A stretch of 39,710 nt of DNA from a virus. Its lineage: Duplodnaviria > Heunggongvirae > Uroviricota > Caudoviricetes. Both the position numbers and the translations under genes were made by a program. Each line of letters starts with the position of its first letter. The stretch's first letter is position 1. This document shows positions 6,373 to 19,097 of the stretch, piece after piece. Location of the stretch: IMG/VR virus record IMGVR_UViG_2778261152_000009, positions 1 to 39,710 of that record. The stretch is one strand, 5' to 3'. The notes under the pieces are model-generated. The model worked only from the letters and a program-made list of their open reading frames with translations. It was not told the origin of the DNA and searched no databases.

Positions 6373-6852
6373 TTAAATTGCGTGAATAGCGTGATGAGGG
6401 AAAGGGAGAGTTACTGGTTCCTCGTCTGGGTAGATAGGTTTGTTATGTTTGTGCCACTCGACATGACATGACTTGCAGAGCCACATTACATCGGTTGGTT
6501 TGCTGTAGTCGCAGTGGTGCGCCTGTGGTTTACATTCTGATCCGCAGCACTCACATTGTGGTGGTCGGATTAGCTTACCGTCGCGCAAAAAATTACCCAC
6601 GATGATGTGGGCTTTTCTTTTCCATGGGTTGCTCTGAATGAACCGCTTTTTGGCTGCGTTACACCGTTCTCTGCCGCGTTCCGATGATTGATATTCTCTC
6701 CTTGCTGATACTCGATGTGGCAATCCCGCGCGCTCTTTGTCGTATTCAGCCAGGCAAGCCCGGCAAGCGGCAGTTAATCCATCTCTGGATGCTCTTCTGA
6801 TTTGAAAGTCCCTTTCTTCCTTCTGTTGATGACATCTTGAGCAGATTTTCAT
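6373..6852 (-). CDS. HNH-family endonuclease
   Basis: 159-aa ORF with paired CxxC motifs (CSRCH, CRAC, CECC, CKSC) and the HNH-like segment AHHCDYSKPTDVMWLCKSCHVEWH. Confidence 0.65.
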   Translation of the reverse strand: MKICSRCHQQKEERDFQIRRASRDGLTAACRACLAEYDKERAGLPHRVSARREYQSSERGRERCNAAKKRFIQSNPWKRKAHIIVGNFLRDGKLIRPPQCECCGSECKPQAHHCDYSKPTDVMWLCKSCHVEWHKHNKPIYPDEEPVTLPFPHHAIHAI

Positions 6853-7335: not shown

Positions 7336-8043
7336 TTATGCCGCCTGTTTTAGTTCGTCAACTCTGATGTTCATTACCTGAACGCATTTAGCCTGCGCCT
7401 CCTCGTTGCCAGCCATTAATTGCCAGTCATGCTGATAACGTTCGATGAGTTTTTTCTTGTCAGTTTCTGTTGACGCATAATCGCTGAAGTCTTTCAGGAT
7501 TTGTTCGCAGTCAACCGATGGAGATTTCTGGTTGGTATTTTCTGGTGATGGTTTGTTATCTGATGCTGGGATTGCCCATCCCGGCAGCGATGGAGGGAGC
7601 CAGTAAAATCCTGTTCCATCCTTGAGTTTTGCCCTGTGCCATCCCTGCTTTTTGTCGAGAGATGTTTGTGCGAAACCTTCCTCAAGGTTATACAGATACC
7701 GACCGATTCCCCACTGAACGGCAGCGCGCTTCATTGCACCTGAACGACCACCTTTGACGGCTTCTACCTGCGTGTTTTCAGCAGCATCCCATTTGGTTAC
7801 CCATTCGGAATCAATCTTTATTGATATGCCGCATTCAACGCCGCCGTTGTTGGGAATATCGCGGTATTCATTGCGCCATCCTGCTTTGCCACAAACATCG
7901 TCCAGGCGTTTCATGATTGCCCGGTTCGTGACATAAGCCAGCACCATAGCCCACACCTTGCCATCGCGTGTTTTACCGCTTTGCTGTATTCGCCATTCGA
8001 TATCTTCAGGGCTGAATGGCTCATCGAATTTGTTCAAATCCAT
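7336..8043 (-). CDS. Single-strand annealing protein, Rad52/22-like (recombinase)
   Basis: 235-aa ORF directly upstream of and abutting ssb; N-terminal region with conserved-looking KxDGxxxWA and GRYLYNLEEG segments resembles Rad52/Sak-type annealases as I recall them. Confidence 0.6.
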   Translation of the reverse strand: MDLNKFDEPFSPEDIEWRIQQSGKTRDGKVWAMVLAYVTNRAIMKRLDDVCGKAGWRNEYRDIPNNGGVECGISIKIDSEWVTKWDAAENTQVEAVKGGRSGAMKRAAVQWGIGRYLYNLEEGFAQTSLDKKQGWHRAKLKDGTGFYWLPPSLPGWAIPASDNKPSPENTNQKSPSVDCEQILKDFSDYASTETDKKKLIERYQHDWQLMAGNEEAQAKCVQVMNIRVDELKQAA

Positions 8044-8051
8044 AATTCACC

Positions 8052-8223
8052 TCAGAATGGACATGGCCCAAGGAAATAACGCTGATTTAATACTTCAGTC
8101 TTTGCCGCATTTAAAAATACGCGAACACCTTCACGATCTCCCTTCTGGCGATACATTAACGCCTGCTGCGTGTACATGCGTCTCTGTAACTTGCTCTCCT
8201 TCACTGTGGTTGCAAGTGACATG
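8052..8223 (-). CDS. Hypothetical small basic protein (56 aa)
   Basis: Not in the ORF track (under 60 aa); minus-strand ATG at 8223 preceded by AAGGAG 7 nt upstream; translation MSLATTVKESKLQRRMYTQQALMYRQKGDREGVRVFLNAAKTEVLNQRYFLGPCPF; overlaps the listed 8131..8316 ORF, which uses a GTG start. Confidence 0.3.
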
Positions 8224-8434
8224 AATATCTCCTTCGTTACCGATTAAATCTTTCATCTGACGAATGAATTCTTCGTCTGACCAGTTATCTGTAAAACTCA
8301 TTTCCTGCGATACCACGGAAGGTTGATAGCTGACTTCATCGCTTTATTTGCTTCAAGCCACATTTTAGAATCACCAATAAATCTGGCTATTACTGCTTTG
8401 TTCTGTGCAGCACGAAGCATCTGGTGATTAATGG

Positions 8435-8620
8435 CTATTTCATTGCGCATAACGCCTCCAGTTGTTTCTTTGCTGCTCTGATTAATTGTTTAACTCGGCG
8501 TGATAATTCAGATTCGTGCGGGTAGAAAGCGGACATGACGCCGCTACCCGCGAGCTGAAAGTGCATCATGGGTAACTCCTTATATTTGATTGCATAACGA
8601 AAATGCCTCTCGTGAAGCAT
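8435..8620 (-). CDS. Hypothetical small protein
   Basis: 61-aa ORF in the early-left operon where lambdoid phages carry kil/cIII-type small genes; no family recognised. Confidence 0.35.
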   Translation of the reverse strand: MLHERHFRYAIKYKELPMMHFQLAGSGVMSAFYPHESELSRRVKQLIRAAKKQLEALCAMK

Positions 8621-18941: not shown

Positions 18942-19016
18942 GGGTCAGTCGTATAAAGGTCATTACGGAAGGCTGTTAACCTTCTTATCGTGGTTCGAGT
19001 CCACGCTGTCCCGCCA
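18942..19016 (+). tRNA. tRNA-like gene, anticodon GUU (Asn-like), imperfect cloverleaf
   Basis: Manual fold: perfect T-arm CGTGG-TTCGAGT-CCACG, perfect anticodon arm GAAGG-CTGTTAA-CCTTC with U33/A37, D-loop with GG, encoded CCA; acceptor and D stems each have one U-U mismatch. Confidence 0.4.
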
Positions 19017-19021
19017 AATAT

Positions 19022-19097
19022 GTTGGTTTAGCTCCAATGGTAGAGCAGTCGCCTTGTAAGCGAATGGGTAGCGGTTCAAGTCCGTTAACCAGCACCA
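19022..19097 (+). tRNA. tRNA, anticodon UGU (Thr)
   Basis: Manual fold: acceptor GTTGGTT/AACCAGC (one G-U), U8, D-arm GCTC-CAATGGTA-GAGC, anticodon loop CTTGTAA, T-arm AGCGG-TTCAAGT-CCGTT, discriminator A, encoded CCA; 5 nt after the first tRNA-like gene. Confidence 0.5.

Follow-up and report, generated by a model that had tools for sequence, protein, structure and literature searches.

The two overlapping small ORFs described here lie in a P22-like prophage that occupies the window, by which we mean the whole analyzed stretch of 39,710 nucleotides. Landmarks of this prophage are int (1-1161), cI (~10.6-11.4 kb), and the portal gene (23.6-25.8 kb). Both small ORFs are encoded on the minus strand, as are their neighbors, in the order cIII, kil, acidic ORF, basic ORF, Rad52/Rad22-family recombinase, and SSB. 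The upstream neighbor cIII (8435-8569), part of the early-left operon, encodes 44 aa (MMHFQLAG...), matches Pfam PF08134 (cIII) with E=2e-30, and has a counterpart annotated CIII in HK97, mEpX2, and HK022; kil (8298-8450) encodes 50 aa and matches both PF06301 (Lambda_Kil, E=1.7e-20) and phrog_2055 (E=1.2e-35). On the other side, 8 nt beyond the stop of the basic ORF, begins the gene for a single-strand-annealing recombinase of the Rad52/Rad22 family (7336-8043; the near-identical copy in mEpX2 matches Pfam PF04098 with E=5e-26), followed by a putative phage SSB (6862-7335, 157 aa ending in ...DDSDIPF). The latter was assigned by ORF translation and position: in Sf6 (gene 27, 'putative') and in mEpX2, the gene at the corresponding place is named as that of a single-stranded DNA-binding protein. 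The original prediction, made from the DNA alone, had assigned the two ORFs to a kil/cIII-equivalent region; this was right as to location but not as to identity, because the Pfam cIII and Lambda_Kil models match the two upstream ORFs, and searches of the acidic and basic ORFs with Lambda_Kil, cIII, and Lambda_CIII returned no match. The stretch occurs in 1160 of 5426 complete E. coli genomes (about a fifth) and in 145 phage records, and the locus recurs in many lambdoid, P22-like, and Stx phages. Chance alone readily yields ORFs of this size, a stretch of 3.5 kb containing 61 that are 25 aa or longer; it is their conservation, not their mere existence, that sets the acidic and basic ORFs apart from chance.

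The acidic ORF, read from a GTG at 8316-8314 to a TGA at 8133-8131, encodes 61 aa with a pI of 4.5. That ORF had been predicted correctly, but the GTG start is less well supported than an in-frame ATG five codons downstream (8301-8299), which overlaps the kil TGA (8300-8298) as ATGA in the context aggaaATGAgt. Inspection of the sequence before GTG 8316 found no Shine-Dalgarno element, and the acidic start overlaps the stop of the preceding gene, be it kil or a cIII-like gene, in 10 of 10 loci examined, as ATGA or, in loci L186 and L016, as GTGA. The acidic gene thus most likely starts at ATG 8301 on the kil stop, and so would span 8131-8301 and encode 56 aa, the equivalent of Sf6 gene 30, mEpX2_036, and phrog_2123. 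A profile search matched its residues 1-52 to phrog_2123 with E=6.3e-40. The profile itself spans 52 residues, the C-terminal half of which is an unconstrained out-of-frame tail, so the match is informative only over about residues 1-27.

Conservation in the acidic ORF is confined to the first ~26 codons (8224-8301; MSFTDNWSDEEFIRQMKDLIGNEGDI, pI 4.05), which include the motif WSDEEFI and in which residues 9-20 are modeled by AlphaFold2 (AF2) as a short helix (pLDDT 61-73). All indels found in the acidic ORF are multiples of three: a loss of 15 nt in phiKp_30, gains of 21 and 42 nt that are duplications of EFIRQMK (P0029 and P0036), and a 3-nt indel that separates the Enterobacter subtypes. 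Part of the amino acid conservation, namely that of the E-G codons (NEGD or SEGG), has another source, because the Shine-Dalgarno element of the basic gene (GAAGGAG or GAAGGAGG) overlies those codons. Scans of both ORFs with Pfam, NCBIfam, and PADLOC found no meaningful family; the only family-library matches, to FmdE (E=0.11) and to a tail-domain model (E=0.045), fell far below the cut-offs. In the RefSeq genome examined, PGAP leaves the acidic ORF uncalled and annotates the basic ORF as WP_000050554.1.

The basic ORF (8052-8222) encodes 56 aa with a pI of 10.1, one nucleotide shorter at its 5′ end than the predicted 8052-8223. Its ATG (8222-8220) is preceded, with a 6-nt spacer, by the Shine-Dalgarno element GAAGGAG (8229-8235), read from the sequence, which lies inside the acidic-ORF codons N-E-G-D; the basic ORF does therefore have the better translation signal of the two, as had been claimed. 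A strong Shine-Dalgarno element stands at the same spacing before the basic ATG in every context, including unrelated upstream DNA (L121/L122, L006, L007, and L178). The protein belongs to the family of HkaM, Sf6 gp29, and HK97 gp42 (phrog_1723; E=4.5e-34, residues 1-56 on profile positions 3-58 of 58) and is a constant 56 aa across ~190 loci. Family length is about 54-62 aa, and an alignment of 14 diverse members showed S10, A21, E43, F50, and the C-terminal P55-F56 to be invariant, all six residues being present in the window's protein; the family C-terminus is an invariant FLGxxPF. An exhaustive profile search of 1.84 billion proteins retrieved 22 representatives at E<=0.001, of which the full-length relatives are 56-60 aa. 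AF2 models the protein as a two-helix hairpin (helices 7-27 and 30-51, pLDDT 89), and a fold search with this model against PDB and BFVD found no match at E<=0.001, all structures returned being helical hairpins of a generic kind.

On its 3′ side the basic gene is followed by a gene for a Rad52-like protein, for Erf, or for an AAA_24 ATPase (Sak4 belongs to this family); in one locus, L006, an HNH gene stands between it and the Erf gene. Because the downstream gene varies in this way, the basic protein is not tied to one recombinase family. We found nothing to support the label 'recombinase' that PHROG gives to phrog_1723 and that RefSeq phage records have taken over.

The two ORFs had been described as overlapping out of frame on the same strand, and both parts of that description hold: the basic frame (frame B) is +1 relative to the acidic frame (frame A), and the two share 92 nt (8131-8222), in which the acidic tail is superimposed on codons 1-30 of the basic gene and a further 2 nt. 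The arrangement is already known. The same out-of-frame pair is annotated in Sf6 (genes 30/29), mEpX2 (_036/_035), HK022, and the mEp phages, and falls within existing PHROGs. Sf6-type phages have the order seen in the window, with kil, the acidic ORF on the kil stop, the 56-aa basic ORF, the Rad52-like recombinase, and SSB, and Sf6, mEpX2, and HK022 are 93-99% identical to the window at the DNA level. The window carries the 'HK022/mEpX2' allele of the C-terminal half of the basic gene (QQALMYRQKGDREGVRVFLNAAKT) in place of the Sf6 allele (QKALWYRHNGDREGMRVCLNLSRV); this is why its frame-A stop falls 92 rather than 80 nt after the basic ATG. A literature search on gp42.1, WP_000050554, and Sf6 genes 29/30 found no paper on either ORF.

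In order to see which frame is under constraint, and where, we drew on annotated phages, species-representative genomes, and IMG/VR for a set of ~200 loci. Among these were 107 distinct sequences with both ORFs, of which 95 belong to an E. coli type and 12 to a diverged Enterobacter type. Between the acidic and basic ATGs, variants in the E. coli clade fell at frame-A codon positions 1, 2, and 3 in the proportions 4/8/18 (p=0.0055). The corresponding periodicity in the Enterobacter-type clade (19/16/28) ran in the same direction but was not significant (p=0.16). Between clades, pN/pS over this segment, by the Nei-Gojobori method, was 0.50 for frame A against 1.14 for frame B. The constraint on the acidic N-part, over its 26 codons, is only moderate.

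Each gene also occurs without the other. Salmonella phage ABTNLsp11242 (L006) and L112/L113 have a basic gene but no acidic ORF; the Shine-Dalgarno element of the basic gene marks the exact point of junction with unrelated upstream DNA in L121/L122; Erwinia phage 59 (L007) and L178 have a different upstream ORF, ending at +4 or +10; and in HK620 the basic-family gene comes straight after kil. Conversely, the acidic N-part in HK140 belongs to a 35-aa acidic protein (MSFTDNWSDEEFIRQMNKMLNQHKEQEKDDDSDSE) with a different tail, which stands upstream of a 103-aa ORF and RecT, with no basic gene; P0073-P0076 have the same 35-aa form, also without a basic gene.

These observations bear on the suggestion that only the basic ORF is functional and that the acidic ORF is untranslated, or is a functionless leader that tunes access to the basic ribosome-binding site, translation from the kil stop keeping that site accessible or occluding it. 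Such a reading would fit the self-contained nature of the basic gene, with its own Shine-Dalgarno element in unrelated upstream contexts, as well as the omission of the acidic ORF by PGAP, the pN/pS of only 0.5 in the acidic N-part, and the coincidence of the conserved E-G codons with the Shine-Dalgarno element. It does not readily account for the third-position periodicity of frame A upstream of the basic ATG, for the finding that four of four acidic indels preserve the frame, for the start/stop overlap that is kept after different upstream genes, or for the N-terminal peptide that is kept with another acidic tail in HK140 and P0073-P0076, where there is no basic gene whose translation could be tuned. 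Nor was RNA structure around the basic ribosome-binding site significant (z=-1.6). We consider a single functional gene unlikely, while allowing it a modest chance of being correct.

Past the basic ATG the pattern is reversed. Variants within the overlap fell at frame-B codon positions 1, 2, and 3 in the proportions 5/2/17 in the E. coli clade (p=0.0004) and 18/10/28 in the Enterobacter clade (p=0.013). Counted as synonymous/nonsynonymous, the variants of the E. coli clade were 2/22 when read in frame A and 15/9 when read in frame B, and those of the Enterobacter clade 6/50 and 25/31, respectively. The between-clade pN/pS over the overlap was 1.5 in frame A and 0.30-0.34 in frame B, and over the remainder of the basic gene it was 0.15-0.29 in frame B (again by Nei-Gojobori). 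Constraint thus passes from the acidic to the basic frame exactly at the basic ATG, and the acidic tail within the overlap lacks selection in its own frame. The original prediction had named synonymous-site conservation in favor of neither frame as grounds for its rejection; what the synonymous sites give is support for each frame in its own segment.

The position of the frame-A stop is variable. Counted in nucleotides after the basic ATG, it lies at +92 in 83 loci, +80 in 76, and +86 in 16, with single loci at +32 and +137; in three further loci it lies at +14, the frame-A ORF there being unrelated sequence (e.g., L112). The +32 stop, in L064, results from one C>T substitution, which leaves the frame-B amino acid as it was (AGC>AGT) and converts CAA to the stop TAA in frame A. 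When synonymous codons of the basic protein were resampled, the median position of the first frame-A stop was +74 to +80, and the simulated stop lay at or beyond the observed one with P=0.25-0.46; the overlap is therefore about as long as chance gives, with no stop avoidance in frame A by this test. A terminator-like hairpin at the acidic stop (8135-8120) was also considered and set aside as weak, given that 7 such hairpins were found against 3.8 +/- 1.9 after shuffling and that its T-run is absent from the Sf6 allele.

True dual coding, in which the acidic C-terminal tail is functional and both frames are selected, would be in keeping with the persistence of an overlap of +80 to +92 in both the E. 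coli-type and the Enterobacter-type clades and with a PHROG 2123 profile that covers 52 residues. The variation described above speaks to the contrary: only 2 of 24 variants in the E. coli clade and 6 of 56 in the Enterobacter clade are synonymous in frame A, with the pN/pS of 1.5 to match; the tails of the two clades cannot be aligned beyond what frame-B conservation imposes; stops vary, are not avoided, and in the natural allele L064 truncate the tail at +32 by a change that is silent in frame B. Dual coding is accordingly given only a slender chance.

The annotation of HK97 raises a third possibility. HK97 has homologous DNA (93% identity) in the same place after kil, and it is annotated there with gp42.1 (83 aa) and gp42 (58 aa) in one frame, gp42 being an internal start. 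Owing to two extra bases (CATGTcACACGCgAG), the acidic frame continues there into the C-terminal two-thirds of the basic one. If the real product were an ~82-aa fusion like gp42.1, made by programmed +1 frameshifting or disguised by a frameshift error in the window, then the in-frame arrangement of HK97 and several 82-aa fusions in public assemblies, one of which (P0056) occurs on 36 contigs, could be taken as its traces. The HK97 state, however, needs two nucleotides that set HK97 apart from the other 201 of the 202 loci and from all other phage records, and these may reflect a strain mutation or a 1990s sequencing error. The junctions of the 82-aa forms also differ (GDI/MSLATT, HVT/STTVKE, AHV/PQKALW, HAE/ALWY, ESSL/YRHN, and LVS/HNGD); because the frame switches at such scattered positions, these forms are independent 1-nt deletions or assembly errors and do not point to a common shift site. 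About 170 loci, the window included, keep the two-frame arrangement. The codon at which frame A ends is not the same in the two alleles, which by eye share no slippery or prfB-like site, and if the shift came late, frame A ought to be constrained within the overlap, where it is not. Given the lack both of that constraint and of a shared shift motif, programmed frameshifting is very unlikely, and we regard a fusion product of either origin as the least credible reading of the locus.

The reading that we favor, and consider probable, is that the acidic and basic ORFs are two genuine, independently mobile small genes of the early-left (pL) operon whose overlap is incidental. Between the alternatives originally offered, one real ORF or a genuine pair, the pair is thus the better supported, with the qualification that support for the acidic member covers only its first ~26 codons. 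The acidic gene would initiate at ATG 8301, probably by translational coupling to kil through the ATGA overlap, and its functional part would be the first ~26 residues, forming an acidic amphipathic helix with the WSDEEFI motif. Having no in-frame stop at the end of this part, ribosomes would continue out of frame over 30 codons of the basic gene to the chance stop at 8133-8131. The basic gene would initiate on its own at ATG 8222, from the strong Shine-Dalgarno element inside the N-E-G-D codons, and yield the 56-aa basic helical hairpin of the HkaM family. That both ORFs are translated is what we infer from these sequence features. An overlap would then arise without being selected, because a downstream gene with its own ribosome-binding site sits +1 to an upstream ORF that lacks a nearby stop.

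A named relative of the basic protein outside the overlapping pairs is HkaM of phage HK620 (NP_112046), whose homology is supported by hhalign (probability 98.6%, E=7e-16, with a profile that includes the window's basic protein) and by a match to phrog_1723 (E=3.6e-33). HkaM shares with the basic ORF its small size, its basic character (pI 9.6), the C-terminal -PF, and a gene position directly upstream of a recombinase gene. Unlike the basic ORF, HkaM is 62 aa long and its gene follows kil with an ATGA overlap, no acidic ORF intervening; the recombinase 3′ of HkaM is Sak4, whereas that in the window is Rad52-like. HkaM was first annotated 'arf' by position and later termed an orphan of unknown function (PMC5928155). 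In the same study, HK620 sak4 and ssb alone gave the recombineering level of the whole module, HkaM being dispensable for oligonucleotide recombineering, and the SSB tip NDYPPF was what stimulated Sak4 (PMC5928155).

For the acidic ORF, the comparison that suggests itself is with P22 Arf (PF17585, phrog_2445), a 47-aa protein that aids recombination by an unknown mechanism (PMC12315714). Arf has a pI of 4.05, as does the acidic N-part; both have SDEEFI near the N-terminus; the P22 order kil-arf-erf matches kil-acidic-(basic)-recombinase in the window; and in one nr source the acidic ORF goes by the name 'accessory recombination function protein'. Sequence comparison gave little more. The acidic ORF had no match to Pfam PF17585 (Phage_Arf) at E<=1 and matched phrog_2445 only with E=0.013 over 22 residues, hhalign of the acidic family against the Arf family reached a probability of 24% over 16 columns, and the conserved C-terminal two-thirds of Arf has no counterpart in the acidic ORF. 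Homology of the acidic ORF to P22 Arf is therefore not established.

Position suggests a possible role for both products as accessory factors of the recombination module, because the acidic ORF is Arf-like and the basic gene, the HNH gene of L006 aside, always lies immediately 5′ of the recombinase gene. AF2 modeling of a natural fusion of the acidic N-part to the whole basic protein (P0010) gave no confident packing of the two, with pLDDT 61-73 for the acidic part and pTM 0.62, versus 0.69 for the hairpin alone.

A more specific idea, which we put forward as speculative and think rather improbable, is that the C-terminal FLGxxPF of the basic protein mimics or competes with the C-terminal tip of SSB. 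The terminal P-F is invariant in 14 of 14 aligned members of the basic family and in HkaM, and the SSB tips compared, DDDIPF (E. coli), NDYPPF (HK620), and DDSDIPF (this prophage), end in the same two residues; the published stimulation of Sak4 by the NDYPPF tip (PMC5928155) also lends the idea some weight. Against it, the residues preceding the P-F of the basic protein are not acidic, and the P0010 model showed no confident acidic-basic packing. Were the idea correct, the basic protein would dock into SSB-tail pockets on the phage recombinase or on host proteins such as RecO, PriA, ExoI, or RecQ; its association with three unrelated recombinase families would then be accounted for, and the acidic Arf-like peptide could be its partner or antagonist.

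None of these results would surprise a phage specialist, and their main value lies in annotation, that is, in how to call this recurrent locus. The basic gene is to be called as real and placed with HK620 HkaM. The acidic gene is best started at the ATG that overlaps the kil stop, with its C-terminal half regarded as meaningless read-through, and the gp42.1/gp42 annotation of HK97 is to be treated as an outlier. Called in this way, three separately named 'orphans', Sf6 gp29, HK97 gp42, and HK620 HkaM, are united in one family, and this HkaM family, encoded just upstream of the phage recombinase, becomes a defined candidate accessory factor for studies of phage recombination modules.

In phage HK97 (locus L002, AF069529.1), gp42.1 and gp42 are annotated in the same frame because two extra nucleotides (CATGTcACACGCgAG) are present at locus positions 1254-1268. 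These nucleotides were found nowhere else among the 202 collected loci, nor in other phage records, and stem either from a double insertion specific to the strain or from an error in the old sequence. Proteins of 81-82 aa that fuse the acidic and basic reading frames (homologs of window 8052-8301) are also present in public assemblies (P0010, P0013, P0016, P0040, P0048, P0049, P0056, and P0057), and the position of the frame switch differs among them. P0056 occurs on 36 NCBI contigs; at least one fusion therefore seems to result from a genuine, clonal deletion of 1 nt in a prophage rather than from an assembly error.

In P0029 and P0036, homologs of the conserved N-terminal part of the acidic ORF (window 8224-8301), the seven-residue unit EFIRQMK, which lies in the conserved helix, is tandemly duplicated in-frame to give one or two extra copies. 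In some prophages, the acidic ORF has been joined by deletion, at ...NWSDEEF, to the N-terminus of a different gene of the early-left region (proteins P0059, P0064, and P0051; loci L175 and L041). One such partner is an N-protein N36 peptide (PF11438), and another is a cIII-like ORF. These fusions look like a recurrent deletion junction or the decay of defective prophages.

The stop codon of the acidic ORF coincides exactly with a weak terminator-like hairpin on the minus strand, CGTGAAGGTGTTCGCG followed by TATTTTT (8120-8135), within the basic gene. The hairpin is probably due to chance because it is not kept in the Sf6-type allele, and because the number of such matches is near that expected from shuffled sequence.

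Re-annotated RefSeq records of phages (NC_019705, NC_002167, NC_005344, NC_002730, and others) give 'recombinase' as the product of both small ORFs and of HK620 hkaM. This name apparently derives from the labels of PHROGs 1723 and 2123; Pfam, NCBIfam, and fold searches gave no support for it.

Elsewhere in the window, two adjacent plus-strand tRNA genes (18942-19013 and 19022-19094; Rfam RF00005, 55-57 bits) lie upstream of a run of ORFs whose last members probably encode terminase and portal proteins. Directly after the SSB gene is a minus-strand ORF for a Cys/His-rich protein of 159 aa (6373-6852); the equivalent position in locus L004 is annotated 'HNH endonuclease' by PGAP. An HNH gene also separates the basic gene from erf in Salmonella phage ABTNLsp11242 (L006), interrupting the recombination module.

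Among the recombinases encoded downstream of the basic gene, members of three unrelated families (Rad52-like, Erf, and AAA_24 ATPase) have a similar C-terminal tail of ~60 aa. In the window's Rad52-like protein the tail is encoded by 7336-7520, with similar tails in HK97, Erwinia phage 59 (L007), and loci L099 and L108. Alignment of five sequences gave the pattern ...L..F...A......L....W...G.......R..EL..AA, with 10 invariant columns. The 228-aa AAA_24 protein of locus L008 lacks the tail. The common tail suggests a portable C-terminal interaction module.
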